6,480 bases of DNA, taken from a virus. Its lineage: Duplodnaviria; Heunggongvirae; Uroviricota; Caudoviricetes. The notes below the pieces were generated by a model. It saw only the letters and a list, made by a program, of their open reading frames with translations. It searched no databases and was not told where the DNA came from. Shown in pieces: positions 1 to 6,480 of the stretch. The stretch lies in the IMG/VR virus record IMGVR_UViG_2537561716_000021. The stretch is one strand, 5' to 3'. Numbering within the stretch: the stretch's first letter is position 1; each line of letters opens with the position of its first letter. A program made the position numbers and the translations under genes.

Positions 1-42
1 ACCAAGCCTTTGATATATAAGTGTTTTCTCTGTTAAGCGTGA

Positions 43-97
43 GCTACGTGAAAAATAATTTTTAGTGGGTATATCTGTTCAAGAGATTTCACGTAGC
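43..97. repeat. 11-bp perfect inverted repeat GCTACGTGAAA / TTTCACGTAGC with 33-bp AT-rich spacer
   Basis: Arms at 43-53 and 87-97. Lies in the non-coding stretch downstream of the tape-measure gene. Confidence 0.8.
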
Positions 98-144
98 ATT
101 CGACTATTCATAGTTGAATCGTCATACTAGATAAAGATTAATAG

Positions 145-162
145 ATTGCCATGTGTGGCAAT
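145..162 (-). terminator. possible weak terminator hairpin downstream of the tape-measure gene
   Basis: ATTGCCA-tgtg-TGGCAAT, a 7-bp stem with 4-nt loop, 25 nt past the stop at 187. On the minus strand it is followed by a U-rich but interrupted tract (CUAUUAAUCUUUAUCU). Could equally be an operator palindrome. Confidence 0.25.
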
Positions 163-186
163 AAATATTAGTAGTTCTAACATTGT

Positions 187-2265
187 TTATTCCTCTGGGT
201 AAGCTGAGCTAATCAAGGTATCTTCCTGCATACGATTAATATGTGATGTTGTCCTTTCATCAATAACTTTCCCATCAAGTACCGTCTGAGTTGTGATATT
301 GATTGTCTGAGGCTGAATATTTACTGACGGCTTGATAAGCTTTAAATCTTGTGTGAATGTTTCCACTCGACCTTTCAGATTATTTAATGCTTCAGGTGAA
401 AACTGTGGAACATCTTTTGATTTGCCCTGAACCATAGCCCATAAAACAGTGGCTAAAGAGTTCATGTCACCAGTTAATGCTTGGTCTGTGGGTTCCACCT
501 TTGACCTTACAACTTTATCAATTGGATTATCTGACTTACTCATCTGACGTTCACAGAACGGTTTGACAATGGCATTAATCACATCAGTTGCCATACCGAC
601 AATCATTACTTTGGTAATTGCATCAGCTACAGATAGCCTACTTTTTCCACCTTCAACACTACCAGTAGAACGTGAATTGATTCTTCCTGCTGCTGTATTT
701 GCCACATTTCCAAGCGTGGAAATGGCCCTAATTAAGTTCCAGATACCACCTACAGCACCAATCCCAGACCTTACAGCGACTATACCAGCAAGCCCCTTTA
801 ATGCACTTAACAGGCCATTTGCAAGACCATCAGCTACAGCTTTTTGAGTGTCATTTAATTCTCTGTAAGCAAGGGTCACTCTGTCAAAGAATCCCTGCAC
901 TCGGTAGCTAATCGTGGTTAAGTCATCAATACCGTTTGACATGCTTTTCATCAGGTCGCCAAAATGTTCACCAAGATTTTTAGATTGACCACCCAGTGAA
1001 TTAAGTAAATTAGTCAGTGACCTTGTAAAGTCTGTTAAACCTTCCTGTGAACCGTCGAACATTAAGGCCAAATTATTATTCCATGAATTACTTAAGCGGC
1101 CTAACTGCGTCTGAGTAGAGTTAATAATCTTTTCCCATCCCCCAGCTTTAGCAATCATATTACCCATTTCAGCGGATACTTTAGGAAGAACATCTTTAGA
1201 AAGAACTTTACCGTTCTTCATAGCTGCATCTAATTGCTCGGTAGTCATCCCAAGACTTCTGGCAAATAACTGAAAAGCACCTGCCATTCTGTCCCCTAAC
1301 TGACCGCGTAATTCTTCAGCTTGAATCTTGCCCTTGCTCGCCATCTGCTCAAAAGCTTTTAAAATCCCGTTAATTTCATCGGTGCTTAAACCCATTAATC
1401 TGGATGTACCAATCACATTAGAAAATAAGGATTCTTTCTGGCCTGTATCCATATCACCAGCACCAGCGGAAAACTTAGCAAAACTGCTTAATGTTTCAAT
1501 CTGGTCAACACCAGTATTATTAGCAAGATTCTTAACAAATTCTGTAGCTCGTTTAGCACCTTCATCACCTAAAACGAATTGTGCCGCTCGTTGTGATGCT
1601 TCTTTTTTCAGACCAATCTCCATAATCTTCCTATAAGCTTCTAAGGCTGTCTGAAAACTATAAATGGCTGTACCTGCTTTGATTGCACTTGTAGCTAATA
1701 CATCCAGACCATTCGAAGCCTTTTCACTGTGATTGTTTTTGCTGGTGGTCTTGTTAAACTTAGAAAGTGTTTCACGTAGATTTTGATTTAACTTTGCTAA
1801 CTCACGATTAAAAGCTTCGTTTCCAAGTGTCTTGGATTTACTACTTAATGCGTAAAACTGACTCTTAATGTATTTCTCGACAATTGGGTTAAGACCTTTC
1901 AGCTTGGTCATATTCGCTGAATAAGCTGCTGTGATTGCTCTGTTGCCGCTAATTCGTGGCTGTCTTGATTGTTTTGGAGGATTAACAGTGTCATTAAATC
2001 TGGTGGCAAACTGAAATGCTTTTGTGCTTCTTGCTCTCTGTTCAATCTTGTCAAAGGCCTTATTAAACTTCCTTTCAAGCTGCCCTAAAGAAGCCGTTAA
2101 ATTGCTATCAAGCTGCTTTGTATTAATCCTGAAACCTTTATTTAGGTTCTTTTCAATTCTTTGTGCTGACTGCAAAGCTGCCTTTTCAACTCTTTGCAAG
2201 CCCTTAATAACGTTCTCGCTGAAGCCTAGCTCAACGATAAAACTATCAACTGTGAATTTGCTCAT
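187..2265 (-). CDS. phage tail tape measure protein (tape-measure domain family)
   Basis: 692-aa ORF from the track. ATG at 2265..2263 with GAGGTGA 9 nt upstream. Internal stretch KAFEQMASKGKIQAEELRGQLGDRMAGAFQLFARSLGMTTEQLDAAMKNGKV matches the conserved tape-measure domain motif as I recall it. Gly/Ala-rich hydrophobic segment GLANGLLSALKGLAGIVAVRSGIGAVGGIW and helical, K/E/Q-rich N-terminal third are typical of this family. Not verified by search. Confidence 0.75.
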   Translation of the reverse strand: MSKFTVDSFIVELGFSENVIKGLQRVEKAALQSAQRIEKNLNKGFRINTKQLDSNLTASLGQLERKFNKAFDKIEQRARSTKAFQFATRFNDTVNPPKQSRQPRISGNRAITAAYSANMTKLKGLNPIVEKYIKSQFYALSSKSKTLGNEAFNRELAKLNQNLRETLSKFNKTTSKNNHSEKASNGLDVLATSAIKAGTAIYSFQTALEAYRKIMEIGLKKEASQRAAQFVLGDEGAKRATEFVKNLANNTGVDQIETLSSFAKFSAGAGDMDTGQKESLFSNVIGTSRLMGLSTDEINGILKAFEQMASKGKIQAEELRGQLGDRMAGAFQLFARSLGMTTEQLDAAMKNGKVLSKDVLPKVSAEMGNMIAKAGGWEKIINSTQTQLGRLSNSWNNNLALMFDGSQEGLTDFTRSLTNLLNSLGGQSKNLGEHFGDLMKSMSNGIDDLTTISYRVQGFFDRVTLAYRELNDTQKAVADGLANGLLSALKGLAGIVAVRSGIGAVGGIWNLIRAISTLGNVANTAAGRINSRSTGSVEGGKSRLSVADAITKVMIVGMATDVINAIVKPFCERQMSKSDNPIDKVVRSKVEPTDQALTGDMNSLATVLWAMVQGKSKDVPQFSPEALNNLKGRVETFTQDLKLIKPSVNIQPQTINITTQTVLDGKVIDERTTSHINRMQEDTLISSAYPEE

Positions 2266-2277
2266 TCATATTTTTCA

Positions 2278-2317
2278 CCTCATAGACTTCGGATAGAAGG
2301 CTATCCTCATATACAAA
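2278..2317. repeat. ~36-bp hairpin-containing repeat, copy A (just upstream of the tape-measure gene start)
   Basis: ATAGACTTCGGATAGAAGGCTATCCTCATATA at 2282-2313 contains the hairpin GGATAG-aagg-CTATCC (2291-2306). Matches copy B with one mismatch in the loop, and flanking bases are also similar. Confidence 0.85.
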
Positions 2318-2357
2318 AAAGGAGAGTTACCCAGATTGCCATCCAGATAATCTCTCC
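2314..2357 (-). terminator. possible intrinsic terminator between the 72-aa gene and the tape-measure gene
   Basis: On the minus strand GGAGAG (2357..2352) and CTCTCC (2326..2321) form a 6-bp stem followed directly by TTTTTTG (2320..2314). The 25-nt loop is long for a classic terminator. Confidence 0.3.
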
Positions 2358-2373
2358 CGTAGATTTTTACTAA

Positions 2374-2592
2374 CTAACCAACAACTGATACCCAATGATA
2401 ATCACCATCTTCACGAATAATTCTTGAACCAACCGGAATACGGTCAATGCACCACGAAGGAATTTTGCGAATCTTTATTTTGCTGTTTGAGGTGACAGGC
2501 TGATGCTTACTCTTTACCGTTTTTGGTTTACGTGGTTGGTTTTTAAGTTTTTCACAAACTGCCTTGATAGTCTCTAAACGTTCTTCAAACAT
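2374..2592 (-). CDS. hypothetical small basic protein (72 aa)
   Basis: ORF from track. ATG preceded by AGAGGTGA. Starts 22 nt downstream of the 236-aa gene stop, so probably co-transcribed. Lys/Arg-rich N-terminal half. No recognisable motif. Confidence 0.5.
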   Translation of the reverse strand: MFEERLETIKAVCEKLKNQPRKPKTVKSKHQPVTSNSKIKIRKIPSWCIDRIPVGSRIIREDGDYHWVSVVG

Positions 2593-2614
2593 TAATCACC
2601 TCTTTAATTCATAA

Positions 2615-3325
2615 TCAAACAGCCTTGCTATACTTCTGAGAAATCTTCGTTAACTGCTCAATATCAGCCATTAAAGCAATCTTCTTCTGCGACTCATATT
2701 CACTAACAAGCTCTTTCATGCTATCAAGTTCTTTTCTAAGTTTTTGCTTTAACTTATCCAGTTTATCGGAGTAATGCTTAGTCAAATTAGCTTCAGCTAA
2801 CTGAAGAATCTCTTCATCTGTTTTACCAGTCATCAGAATAAATTGACCAGAACCCCTTAATGCTTGTCTGACATCAATTAACCGGAACCCTTCAGGGATA
2901 CTTTGAAGAACTTTAGGAACGTCTTCAATCGCTGTACCAAAACCATCATTAAAGTTTCCTTCATAATAGATAAACGGGTTTGACTTAATCTCGTAAGCAA
3001 TATCATATTCTGAAGGTTTCGAGGTTTCTTCGAAGTTCTTAACAGCATCGTAAGCAATATCAAGTCGAATACGTTGTTCTTTCAGCTGTGGGTAATATTT
3101 CTTTTCAAGCTCAAGTAATGCTTCACCCTTGCAAATATCAGGCATCTCTTGAGGTTCAGGAGCCACAAAGATGGTTGTTTTTGGTGACATCTTTAACTCT
3201 TGCTCAAGTGCAATTCTTTCATCGTGTTCTTTACGCTGAATAGCGATAGCTGGATGTTCAGTCTGTGGTGACCAGTCACCGAAGCTGTCAACCTTTTTAC
3301 CGTTAATATATAAATCGTTTGTCAT
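2615..3325 (-). CDS. hypothetical protein (236 aa) with Lys/Glu-rich, probably coiled-coil C-terminus
   Basis: Track ORF 2615..3370 begins at a GTG (3370..3368) with no ribosome-binding site. The internal ATG at 3325..3323 is preceded by GAAGAGGG at good spacing, so the start is trimmed to 3325. C-terminal ~60 residues (DKLDKLKQKLRKELDSMKELVSEYESQKK) look coiled-coil. No family recognised. Confidence 0.6.
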   Translation of the reverse strand: MTNDLYINGKKVDSFGDWSPQTEHPAIAIQRKEHDERIALEQELKMSPKTTIFVAPEPQEMPDICKGEALLELEKKYYPQLKEQRIRLDIAYDAVKNFEETSKPSEYDIAYEIKSNPFIYYEGNFNDGFGTAIEDVPKVLQSIPEGFRLIDVRQALRGSGQFILMTGKTDEEILQLAEANLTKHYSDKLDKLKQKLRKELDSMKELVSEYESQKKIALMADIEQLTKISQKYSKAV

Positions 3326-3347
3326 TGTTTTTCCCTCTTCTAAGTAA

Positions 3348-3437
3348 TATTCAGTTTTTAAAAAGCACACCTGACAGCCTACGAACTTAGAAGAGACTTA
3401 AAAGCGTTTGCCAAGTGTGCTTTTTAAAAACTGAATA
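3348..3437. repeat. perfect 23-bp inverted repeat (TATTCAGTTTTTAAAAAGCACAC) with 44-bp spacer
   Basis: Arms at 3348-3370 and 3415-3437 are exact reverse complements. Each arm contains TTTTTAAAAA. The left arm ends 22 nt upstream of the ATG at 3325 (minus-strand sense). Confidence 0.9.
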
Positions 3438-3530
3438 GCCCTAGATAATTTCTTATAAAGGGCCATTCATAAGGTGAAGAAATTAAAAGAACATCTAAAG
3501 GATTCAAATGAATGAACAAAGATTTTTGAT

Positions 3531-3562
3531 ATGGCCTATTTAGTGTGGGCTAAATAAGCCAT
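3531..3562. repeat. 13-bp near-perfect inverted repeat ATGGCCTATTTAG / CTAAATAAGCCAT with 6-nt loop
   Basis: Arms 3531-3543 and 3550-3562 with one mismatch. No adjacent T-run on either strand, so not a classic terminator. Confidence 0.7.
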
Positions 3563-3643
3563 GACGAAAAGCATTGCACCTTTCAGAATAACTATCCCTA
3601 GATGTAGATGGAATTGTTGAAAGAAATAAGAGAGAATTGCTCT

Positions 3644-3685
3644 CCCTATAGACTTCGGATAGAAGACTATCCTCATATATACAAT
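3644..3685. repeat. ~36-bp hairpin-containing repeat, copy B (in the long intergenic region)
   Basis: ATAGACTTCGGATAGAAGACTATCCTCATATA at 3648-3679 with hairpin GGATAG-aaga-CTATCC (3657-3672). Immediately preceded by the small hairpin GAGAG-aattg-CTCTC. Confidence 0.85.
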
Positions 3686-3736
3686 TATGTCATGCTCAAG
3701 GTTATTTGTCAACAGCTTTTTAACAGATTGGTAACA

Positions 3737-3814
3737 TCAATTCTTATTTACCGTATTACCTACCCAGCAACCAACCAATAAGCCAAGCAACGTCCAAGCA
3801 ATTATTAAACCCAT
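3737..3814 (-). CDS. possible 25-aa hydrophobic peptide (MGLIIAWTLLGLLVGCWVGNTVNKN), speculative
   Basis: ATG at 3814..3812 overlaps the TAA stop of the 109-aa gene (TAATG coupling). Hydrophobic stretch ends in a lipobox-like L-V-G-C. Below the track length threshold, and the N-region has no positive charge. Confidence 0.2.
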   Translation of the reverse strand: MGLIIAWTLLGLLVGCWVGNTVNKN

Positions 3815-4143
3815 TAGTGAATCCTCATAGAATCCGCAACCAAAACATTGTCAGCGTACAAAATTGTCACAGCACCTTTCAGAAATTGCTCTGGGCTGAC
3901 ACTAAGTTTGTTTGTCTGTTCGATAATCAATCTTTTCATGTTGCTGTCTTTAATTGGTAGCATCATTCGAGGCTCGTTAAACTCCACCGACTGAATAAAG
4001 TCAGAGATGTTTTCTGCATTATCAGCCATCAAAGCTAACAGCCGGTCAAAGTCAATGCTAATACCTGCATCAGTGAAGTGTTGAAGCATGGTCACTGTGT
4101 CGATATCAAGCATAATTTGTAATGGGAAGTTTAATTCTCTCAT
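3814..4143 (-). CDS. hypothetical acidic protein (109 aa)
   Basis: ORF from track. ATG at 4143 with AAGGAG upstream. Lies immediately downstream (minus-strand sense) of repeat copy 1. No motif recognised. Confidence 0.55.
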   Translation of the reverse strand: MRELNFPLQIMLDIDTVTMLQHFTDAGISIDFDRLLALMADNAENISDFIQSVEFNEPRMMLPIKDSNMKRLIIEQTNKLSVSPEQFLKGAVTILYADNVLVADSMRIH

Positions 4144-4173
4144 TTCTTAAAATCTCCTTTTTACCAGACCTCC

Positions 4174-4291
4174 TCAATCGCTCTGTAACGAGCTAAACAG
4201 TCTTTTTCAGGGGTAGCCTGTACAGTGGTATTACCCACCCTAAAATAGGGTAGTTTTTTGCGTTAGAATGCGATTGAGAGCGTCTGAGAAG
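4174..4291. repeat. bipartite intergenic repeat, copy 1
   Basis: Left flank TCAATCGCTCTGTAACGAG (4174-4192) and right flank AGAATGCGATTGAGAGCGTCT (4265-4285) are identical to copy 2. The 72-nt core is divergent and holds the hairpin ACCCTA-aaa-TAGGGT (4237-4251) followed by T6 (4254-4259). Confidence 0.85.
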
Positions 4292-4299
4292 CTGTTTTT

Positions 4300-4587
4300 C
4301 TAATTTCGCTTAAAGTCTCGGACTTGCATAAGGTTTTTTGGTCTGGTATCGGCTCTGTTACCATTTCGATGGATAATTTGCTTATTGGATTGATAGCCAT
4401 GATAAAGGAACCAGACAACATATTTCACATAGAATGTGTATCGACCTATATTAAATGTTTTGTTGCCGTAGTCGTCGGTATTTATCGTGACTGACTCCCC
4501 ATCAGACCAGCACAGGGAATCACTGGATTCATCATAGATAAGGTGTTCTGCAAAATATCTTCTAACATCTTCATGCCAAGGTTTCAT
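4300..4587 (-). CDS. HNH endonuclease (HNH_3 / homing-endonuclease-like, 95 aa)
   Basis: C-terminal IIHRNGNRADTRPKNLMQV fits the H-x-x-G-x-x-x-D-x-x-x-x-N-L HNH core. Preceding aromatic-rich block (YTFYVKYVVWFLYHGY) resembles the region upstream of the HNH motif in small phage HNH proteins. Strong GAGGAGG site. ATGA start/stop overlap with the upstream gene. Confidence 0.7.
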   Translation of the reverse strand: MKPWHEDVRRYFAEHLIYDESSDSLCWSDGESVTINTDDYGNKTFNIGRYTFYVKYVVWFLYHGYQSNKQIIHRNGNRADTRPKNLMQVRDFKRN

Positions 4588-4799
4588 AAAACCTCCTCAC
4601 CCCAATAACCTAATTCAATCTTATGACGTTCAAACCATTCCGGTTTAACTGCTGTTTTCAGTGTTTCATTTGGGCCAATGGCTTTAATGAAAATATCTTT
4701 TGAGTTATGGATGTCACCGAATCCGTTTCCTTTAATCAGGAGGTCGGAGATGTAGCGAATCATTTTATCTGTGTGGTATTCAAAGGTAATGCATAGCAT
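4584..4799 (-). CDS. hypothetical protein (71 aa)
   Basis: ORF from track. ATG overlaps the stop of the 93-aa gene (TAATG) and its own stop overlaps the HNH start (ATGA), i.e. translationally coupled. No motif recognised. Confidence 0.5.
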   Translation of the reverse strand: MLCITFEYHTDKMIRYISDLLIKGNGFGDIHNSKDIFIKAIGPNETLKTAVKPEWFERHKIELGYWGEEVL

Positions 4800-5080
4800 T
4801 AAACCCCCATCGATAGCTTGTGAATCTTGATGCTCAATAGCCGGGCAATATCAATTTTAAAGTTGTTCAGTTCCTTCAGAGTAGCTAGAGCGTTCTGAGT
4901 AATTCTGATGTGTCTGCGACCTTTAGAAACTGGATATTTCAGTAAATCCGACTCAGTGACCTCTTTAGCAATTGCAAGCTGCATAATGGTTTGATGAGGC
5001 AGGTTAGTTGTCTGTTTAATTCGGGTAAGCTCGTGAAAGGCTTCTTCTGAAATACGGGTTAATGTGTGTTTGTTTTTCAT
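4799..5080 (-). CDS. hypothetical protein (93 aa), possibly a small DNA-binding regulator
   Basis: Track ORF 4799..5164 overlaps the 184-aa gene by 83 nt. The internal ATG at 5080..5078 has GAGGA about 8 nt upstream and sits 1 nt after the 184-aa stop (TAAAATG), so the start is trimmed. Function is a guess. Confidence 0.5.
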   Translation of the reverse strand: MKNKHTLTRISEEAFHELTRIKQTTNLPHQTIMQLAIAKEVTESDLLKYPVSKGRRHIRITQNALATLKELNNFKIDIARLLSIKIHKLSMGV

Positions 5081-5081
5081 T

Positions 5082-5636
5082 TTAAAATTCCTCTGCTTGT
5101 GCGTATACGTCAAATTCAAAGTCTGGTTCACTGGTCGTAAGGCTAATATTGCCCACTTCCACATGATGATTGATTGTCTCGATAACTTTCATGCAAATGG
5201 TAGTTAAATTAGCGCAATATTTATCAGATGGTAGCTCGTAGCTAAGTCTGGTTGCTTGACGCTGTAGATAATTTGTTATTGTGCTTGAGCTAATCTTGTC
5301 AATATTTCGTAGTAAATAGAAAACTTTTTGGTGATAATTATCCCTTCCAAAACTGCGACAAGTACCGATAATTGCATCTTCAATTTTTGATGGTAATTGC
5401 TTGTAGCTGTCAAAACTCATCAAGAAAGGTTTCAAGTTATTCTTCGTTGTTTTGCGTACTGGCATAAATCTGTCTCGTGGCGTAATGCTACGAATGACCG
5501 CTTCAATGTTTTTACGTTCGGATTTGGTAAAGGCTGGGACTTCGTAGCTGGTGGGGTTGTTTGTGTAGCTGTAACCGTTGTGTCTGTTGCGTCTCTTGGA
5601 TTCTTCAAGAAACTTTTGAAATTCTCTGTCGTTCAT
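5082..5636 (-). CDS. hypothetical protein (184 aa), first gene of the HNH operon
   Basis: ORF from track. ATG at 5636. Preceded by a candidate sigma70-like promoter on the minus strand. No family recognised. Confidence 0.6.
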   Translation of the reverse strand: MNDREFQKFLEESKRRNRHNGYSYTNNPTSYEVPAFTKSERKNIEAVIRSITPRDRFMPVRKTTKNNLKPFLMSFDSYKQLPSKIEDAIIGTCRSFGRDNYHQKVFYLLRNIDKISSSTITNYLQRQATRLSYELPSDKYCANLTTICMKVIETINHHVEVGNISLTTSEPDFEFDVYAQAEEF

Positions 5637-5686
5637 TCATAAGCTGGCCCTTATAATTGTTAATTCTCTGTTAACTCATATATACA

Positions 5687-5715
5687 ATCCTAGCATTTTC
5701 AAAGGCTAATGTCAA
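5687..5715 (-). promoter_or_regulatory. candidate sigma70-type promoter for the 184/93/71/HNH operon
   Basis: Minus-strand TTGACA (5715..5710), 17-nt spacer, TAGGAT (5692..5687), about 50 nt upstream of the ATG at 5636. The -10 is weak. Confidence 0.4.
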
Positions 5716-5722
5716 GTATTTT

Positions 5723-5752
5723 TTAACATTTTATTAACATCTGTGGTATAAT
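5723..5752 (+). promoter_or_regulatory. candidate rightward promoter with extended -10 (TTAACA, 18 nt, TGgTATAAT)
   Basis: TTAACA at 5723-5728. TG at 5744-5745 followed by TATAAT at 5747-5752. Divergent from the operon promoter. Would transcribe repeat copy 2 and the small ORF at 5934. Confidence 0.5.
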
Positions 5753-5830
5753 GGGTTTATGGGGAGAGTAAAATATAAAGGCGTGGCCATGTATTTGGTC
5801 ACATGGTTATTGCATTGCACACAGACATCT

Positions 5831-5925
5831 TCAATCGCTCTGTAACGAGTTAAATGGCCTCTTCAGGTCAACTATAAGGTCAGGTACTTTTTTGTGTCAG
5901 AATGCGATTGAGAGCGTCTTACAAG
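5831..5925. repeat. bipartite intergenic repeat, copy 2
   Basis: Left flank 5831-5849 and right flank 5899-5919 are identical to copy 1. The 49-nt core is different but also ends in T6 (5888-5893). Confidence 0.85.
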
Positions 5926-5933
5926 GAAAACTA

Positions 5934-6110
5934 ATGGTAAATCTCCCTCAGGAATTGGGGTCACCTGATGTGTGGGCTGGTGGAGGTATTGGACTTATTG
6001 CAGGTCTGCTACTTCGCTACGTCCTCGTCAGGGTGCTTGTTGTCTTTAAACTGTTCGGTCGTACATGGACGCTTGACCTTAAGGATAACGACCATACAGA
6101 CCCCCGTTAA
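5934..6110 (+). CDS. possible small membrane protein (58 aa: MVNLPQELGSPDVWAGGGIGLIAGLLLRYVLVRVLVVFKLFGRTWTLDLKDNDHTDPR)
   Basis: Track ORF 5892..6110 begins with TTG. The ATG at 5934 has AAGGA 7 nt upstream. One clear hydrophobic helix (GIGLIAGLLLRYVLVRVLVVF). Lies in a GC-richer ~200-bp stretch between the AT-rich block and the IS end. Confidence 0.35.
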   Translation: MVNLPQELGSPDVWAGGGIGLIAGLLLRYVLVRVLVVFKLFGRTWTLDLKDNDHTDPR

Positions 6111-6142
6111 AATCCCTCCAAAACCCCCTGTACGAGATGGTA

Positions 6143-6480
6143 TGAACCGCCCCGGGTTTCCTGGAGAGTGTTTTATCTGTGAACTCAGGCTGCCAGATCA
6201 TCGTTTCCGATGGAAGCATAATAAGCTTTTTCTGCTTCTGCCGGAGGAGTATGGCCCAGCCTTCCCAGCAATCGTCGATTGTTATCCCAGTCCACCCACG
6301 TTAGTGTGGCCAGTTCCACTTCTGCCGGTTTTTCCAGCTCTTACGGTGTATTACCTCCGCTTTGTAAAGACCATTGATGCTCTCGCCATCGCGTTGTCAC
6401 GAGTCGCCTGTACTCCCTGTTGATGCCAGTAATCCGGCTTCTTTTAGTCGCTCCGTATAGGCCAGTGACACATACTGAGA
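6143..6480 (-). mobile_element. IS3-family insertion sequence, terminal part (IS629/IS1203-like as recalled), continuing past the window edge
   Basis: Terminal sequence TGAACCGCCCCGGGTTTCCTGGAGAG starts at 6143 and matches the IS629-group terminal inverted repeat as I remember it. Minus-strand translation from the window edge reads SQYVSLAYTERLKEAGLLASTGSTGDS and later ESINGLYKAEVIHRKSWKNR and AEVELATLTWVDW...GHTPPAEAEKAYYASIGNDDLAA, a DDE transposase OrfB C-terminus. Composition is visibly GC-richer than the rest. Confidence 0.7.
6185..6480 (-). pseudogene. IS3-family transposase OrfB, C-terminal portion, disrupted
   Basis: In the frame that encodes SQYVSLAYTERLKEAGLLASTGSTGDS there is an in-frame TGA at 6399..6397, exactly where the conserved YDNA motif should be. 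The conserved C-terminal tail is then in a different frame (shift near 6322-6327) and ends at TGA 6187..6185. Hand-translated. Confidence 0.5.

Follow-up and report, generated by a model that had tools for sequence, protein, structure and literature searches.

IS1203 and IS629 are names given to isoforms of a single insertion sequence of the IS3 family, placed by ISfinder in the IS51 group. The element is 1310 bp long and makes its OrfAB transposase through programmed -1 frameshifting, and IS3-family elements move by copy-out-paste-in transposition. Genomes of Escherichia coli O157:H7 carry 22-25 copies of IS629, which generate target duplications of 3-4 bp; 62% of the O157 copies reside in prophages or prophage-like elements, at sites that vary between strains (PMC3271280).

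The stretch of DNA analysed here, to which we refer as the window, is 6,480 nucleotides long and corresponds to a whole draft contig of 6480 bp, AOEA01000054.1 (taken as its reverse complement), from assembly GCA_000334995.2 of E. coli 99.0816. Its last 338 bp belong to an element of the kind just described, and the rest belongs to the prophage-like element into which this IS has inserted. The main features of the window are the following.

1 to 6142, all genes on the minus strand: part of a prophage-like element, the target DNA of the IS, with genes for a tape-measure protein, an HNH endonuclease and several hypothetical proteins
6140 to 6142: predicted 3-bp target sequence GTA, based on the empty site and on the neighbouring IS copy in strain Rafaela_II
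6143 to 6167: right terminal inverted repeat (IRR) of IS629/IS1203, with the same sequence as the IRR of the complete 1310-bp IS1203 of Rafaela_II (L002)
6185 to 6480, minus strand: 3' end of orfB (integrase-core transposase domain, ...SQY to the stop codon), truncated at 6480, where the contig ends

The right end of IS629/IS1203 at the end of a contig

Positions 6143-6480 are the right end of an IS629/IS1203 element of the IS3 family. A first-pass annotation, made from the sequence alone, had recognised a terminal inverted repeat and an OrfB C-terminus of the IS3 family from 6143 onward, and genome matches and domain searches now make this identification specific. The element starts at 6143 with TGAACCGCCCCGGG... 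(opening sequence TGAACCGCCCCGGGTTTCCTGGAGA) and is 97-98% identical to thousands of annotated E. coli copies. A megablast search with positions 6100-6480 as the query against 5,426 complete E. coli genomes returned 25,701 places, and the top matches, all annotated as 'IS3-like element IS1203 family transposase', align from about 6130 on with 97.5-98% identity. When complete 1310-bp IS1203 copies from three O157:H7-type strains were used as alignment references, 333 of the 338 window bases were those of canonical IS1203 and five reference positions were hit by lesions; four lesions excepted, the stretch 6143-6480 is identical to the complete copy from the terminal base inward. The IRR agrees with the left repeat (IRL) of complete IS1203 in 22 of 25 bases, and it is the right repeat alone that lies on the contig.

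The coding part of the element leads to the same assignment. The stop codon of OrfB occupies 6185-6187 on the minus strand, and the 99-residue C-terminus obtained by repairing the lesions matches Pfam rve_3 (E=2.5e-12, above the curated cut-off) and also rve_2. It aligns as well to the end of NCBIfam transpos_IS3 (the final 85 positions, 285-369 of 369; E=5e-26), with a score below the cut-off set for the whole protein, of which 99 residues only are present here. The catalytic E of the DDE triad (in the motif AMAES) is encoded at about 6380-6390, and both D residues fall past the end of the contig. So does the region that corresponds to orfA/orfB and the programmed frameshift annotated in near-identical complete IS1203 copies. 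The IS is richer in GC than the phage-like block, as had been noted at first pass, the values being 0.515 for 6143-6480 and 0.387 for 1-6142. A scan of the whole window with Rfam gave no matches.

Position 6480 is the end of a contig that stops 338 bp into a multi-copy IS, and other draft contigs (L009, L010 and L011) also end within IS629/IS1203. A 44-aa ORF at 6185-6319, which includes a Tyr>Asp replacement, was found by exact look-up in AOEA01000054.1 alone in the whole collection; its protein record is ELV42246.1, 'putative transposase [Escherichia coli 99.0816]'. For two ORFs that span the junction between the IS and its flank (151 aa, 5968-6423; 46 aa, 6079-6219), exact look-ups found no gene on record. 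At the other end of the contig, window position 1 is outside any repeat visible in finished genomes and lies in an AT-rich spacer, 48 bp past the baseplate gene; a coverage gap and a second private IS insertion are both possibilities for the assembly break there.

A strain-private insertion in the prophage-like element of yecE

The element that received the IS is about 12 kb long and splits yecE (DUF72), between yecD and yecN (positions 1556-13617 of L001). It encodes a serine recombinase, a Dit-like baseplate protein, a 692-aa tape-measure protein, an HNH endonuclease, a protein with an AP2/ERF domain and several hypothetical proteins, and no capsid or terminase genes are recognisable in its annotation. 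Pfam TMP_3 and HNH_3 matches are on record for the called genes of the contig. The insertion point, between 6142 and 6143, is within a 1.47-kb stretch of the element without annotated genes.

The empty site reads ...GAGATGGTA up to the insertion point and TAGGGGTATC after it (L001). A 120-bp query over this site is found uninterrupted in 288 complete E. coli genomes, that is, the site is unoccupied in every one of those that carry it; nine match at 99% identity or better, which is the O157-type version of the element at the tested site, and versions at 80-97% are present in about 280 more. The junction in the window is absent from the 5,426 complete genomes, where the best coverage of the junction query is 96%, with an unrelated flank. 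The insertion is genuine, since the join coincides exactly with the terminus of the IS, and because the site is empty in 288 complete genomes and the junction is found in none, it is also recent and, among everything surveyed, private to E. coli 99.0816. The first-pass annotation had taken the broken transposase as the mark of a non-recent insertion or of decay, a reading at odds with the empty site in 288 genomes and with a flank that carries no indels and two private substitutions (three differences against some strains). Nor does the IS set the right boundary of the native sequence, as had been proposed: in strains with an empty site, some 3.5 kb of the element still separate the insertion point from the second half of yecE, so the IS is inside the element.

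Positions 1-6142 differ from the O157:H7-type strains 06-3462, E32511, 08-3914 and DEC3E by two or three substitutions and by no indels, and the comparison with five related strains gives private substitutions at 554 and 4988, a polymorphic site at 5960 and zero indels in 6142 bp. Among the genomes with the element, neither the complete ones nor the DEC3E draft have the substitutions at 554 (C for T) and 4988 (G for A); the tape-measure gene contains one of these and an ORF on the minus strand, 4799-5164, the other. The change at 4988 (TAG>TGG) looks, like that at 6286, as if an A had been lost and the next base gained, and both 554 and 4988 may be lineage markers of 99.0816 or further consensus errors. 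The idea that drafts from the same centre are rich in indels, suggested by a DEC3E product of 112 aa where the window has 184 aa, was rejected: the DNA of DEC3E is the same as that of the window over 6142 bp, the same two SNPs excepted, and the difference is one of gene calling. Near the insertion point there is also an unannotated ORF of 72 aa on the plus strand (5892-6110), which starts with TTG, includes the hydrophobic stretch GGGIGLIAGLLLRYVLVRVLVVF and ends 33 bp before the IS. This ORF, only a putative gene, would be broken by the insertion that Rafaela_II carries at 5988.

That IS1203 copy of Rafaela_II, 154 bp to the left of the insertion in the window, has GTA on both flanks. Together with the empty site, it leads us to infer that GTA was duplicated here too; the second copy would be off the contig, past the far end of the IS, and the partner sequence at the left end is predicted to read ...GGATTTCCGGGGCGGTTCA, then GTA, then TAGGGGTATCTTTAGC. 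The two neighbouring targets are alike (GGAGGTA/TTGG at 5984-5992 and GATGGTA/TAGG at 6138-6146, where the slash marks the insertion point), and this likeness may reflect a local target preference of IS629.

Four lesions in the 3' end of orfB

Alignment to the canonical copies located four differences in the IS, all of them in orfB, which is read from the minus strand.

Lesion 1, at 6286: C for canonical A, giving Tyr>Asp in WVDWYNN
Lesion 2, between 6325 and 6326: 1-base deletion (A), canonical GCACGG, window GCCGG; frameshift
Lesion 3, between 6384 and 6385: 1-base deletion (A), canonical CTCAGCC, window CTCGCC
Lesion 4, 6397 to 6400: 2-base deletion (AT, 6398-6400), canonical GTCATACG, window GTCACG

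As written, the minus-strand translation from 6480 is SQYVSLAYTERLKEAGLLASTGSTGDS, closed by a TGA stop at 6399..6397 where the canonical protein has GDSYDNAMAES. The first-pass annotation had translated this stretch by hand and had read an in-frame TGA at the YDNA motif and a frame change near 6325. The hand translation was right on both counts, and the indels behind them are confirmed on the alignment: lesion 4 converts TCG TAT GAC into TCG TGA C, so that the stop replaces the Tyr codon of YDNA, and the frame change comes from the base lost between 6325 and 6326. Two lesions, those at 6286 and 6384/6385, had gone unmentioned. Lesions 3 and 4 remove three bases in total, with the result that the frame is regained after seven codons and the catalytic Glu of AMAES is again in frame.

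The 338 bp of the IS part therefore contain one substitution and three deletions, confined to a span of 115 bp, and from 6401 to 6480, the final 80 bases of the contig, there is no mismatch to the canonical IS. None of the three deletions falls in a homopolymer run, and each of the four lesions removes or replaces an A on the plus strand. The density of events in the IS part differs from that in the flank with p=2.2e-4 when all events are counted (Fisher test, flank count of 3) and with p=1.4e-4 for indels alone.

None of these lesions is shared by any other copy in the complete genomes. Over positions 6250-6430, the best identity among 22,446 places in the 5,426 complete genomes is 97.3%, and because this is the score of the canonical sequence, no copy has even one of the lesions. 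Among plasmid copies the best match reaches 98.3% over the IS part, with every lesion position still mismatched. Four exact-pattern scans of species-representative genomes and metagenomes gave zero matches, which, as the scans were run without a positive control, is weak evidence. At the lesion positions, canonical IS1203 and a variant at 93% identity have the same bases, and the window has the canonical base wherever those two differ.

Two other drafts have a different frame-breaking change nearby. AIGS01000003.1 (L007, about 2880) and AEZX02000001.1 (L008, about 2890) contain, in mid-contig, IS629-like copies with GGAAAACC in place of canonical GGAAAAACC, and this shortening of a homopolymer from A5 to A4 shifts the frame of orfB immediately before the same 44-aa ORF. 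A sequencing error in the homopolymer and a real variant are both possible.

Origin of the lesions

Comparison of the sequences suggests that the lesions that break the frame are probably artefacts of the contig end and not mutations present in the cell. An IS629 copy has inserted, in E. coli 99.0816 only, into an intergenic stretch of the approximately 12-kb yecE element, and the lesions would be errors in a consensus that has little support where the contig ends. At the rate that the lesions would imply, a recent insertion could not have decayed in place and left its flank clean. Spontaneous mutations in E. coli are mostly substitutions, and indels concentrate in homopolymer runs; since three of the four events are deletions outside such runs, and all affect an A, read or consensus error fits better than natural mutation. 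Three points speak against this explanation. The error-free last 80 bases do not fit a simple drop in quality towards the contig end, so that an artefact must suppose overlapping low-quality read ends or some consensus problem, and the unique part of the contig is free of indels, so the assembly is not generally poor. Truly frameshifted IS629 copies may also exist, as the A4 copies of the two other drafts could show, unless these are errors as well. If the lesions are indeed artefacts, this is probably a normal IS629 copy, intact and potentially active. The earlier view that it is probably dead lacks support, as the contig ends within a repeat and the lesions, unique among about 22,000 copies and mostly deletions outside homopolymers, are likelier to be consensus errors.

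It is also conceivable, if unlikely, that the lesions are real and that the window contains the end of a defective IS629 with a premature stop and a frameshift, either mutated after insertion or already dead and mobilised in trans by transposase from another IS629 copy of the cell. The lesions are, after all, present in the deposited sequence, the intact terminal inverted repeat makes mobilisation in trans mechanistically possible, and the two private substitutions in the flank indicate that the lineage may carry some genuine private change. However, for the copy to have decayed where it sits, events would have had to occur locally at some 25-36 times the rate of the flank (Fisher p ~2e-4), and a predominance of deletions outside homopolymer runs is unlike the natural spectrum. 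Arrival of an already broken copy meets a different difficulty: because IS3-family elements transpose by copy-out-paste-in, the defective donor should persist, and none of the roughly 22,000 copies in complete genomes carries any of the lesions. Moreover, the transposases of this family prefer to act in cis, as established for IS911, which disfavours the mobilisation of a dead copy by another element. That a multiply defective IS629, with real lesions, sits newly at a strain-private site seems to us more doubtful still. Were it so, the locus would represent either a dead copy mobilised in trans or a clustered, deletion-biased burst of mutation in a newly inserted IS end, caused for example by error-prone synthesis during copy-out-paste-in transposition. 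A third explanation, that the 338 bases are a collapsed consensus of non-identical IS3-family copies with gaps where the copies differ, appears very improbable. Relatives of IS629 at 90-95% identity do occur in E. coli genomes (2,177 records), and contig ends inside repeats draw reads from every copy; a mixture should nevertheless affect variable positions, and the lesions are at conserved ones.

Comparison with known IS629/IS1203 insertions

The biological weight of this insertion is small, as IS629 insertions in prophage-like elements of O157:H7 have been amply documented and serve in strain typing. Its lesson is of a more practical nature: a window that ends in a multi-copy IS may simply coincide with the end of a draft contig, and frame breaks at such ends are no basis for claims of pseudogenisation or for dating an insertion. 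The site between 6142 and 6143 in the yecE element is itself valid as a marker specific to E. coli 99.0816.

Compared with the complete IS629/IS1203, the window holds the last quarter only, with orfA, the frameshift site, the codons of both catalytic D residues and the left end off the contig. Its terminal inverted repeat is identical to that of the IS629/IS1203 copies of E. coli O157:H7 (about 20 per genome), and the difference from them consists of the four private lesions, three of which are deletions, that leave the OrfB frame broken as written. Across strains, at least four sites in the yecE element are occupied by IS629/IS1203, always with the IRR towards the tape-measure side. In window-equivalent coordinates they are the following.

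-2022: strain 08-3914 (L004), in the recombinase gene
5988: Rafaela_II (L002); also Vac_07.1, as inferred from an identical match span
6142: 99.0816, the insertion in the window
7415: E32511 and DEC3E (L003/L012), with the same flank, in an AP2/HNH-like gene

The copies at 5988, 7415 and -2022 are intact, with the frameshift annotated, and none of the other copies in the yecE element is at 6142/6143. They are nonetheless the same IS as that in the window, in the same target element and in the same orientation, and the copy of Rafaela_II is, in addition, just 154 bp from the window site, with a similar GGTAT target and a duplication of GTA. Both the location of the window copy in a prophage-like element and its strain-specific site are typical of IS629/IS1203 in O157:H7, and the insertion is of a kind already known, with nothing new to it.
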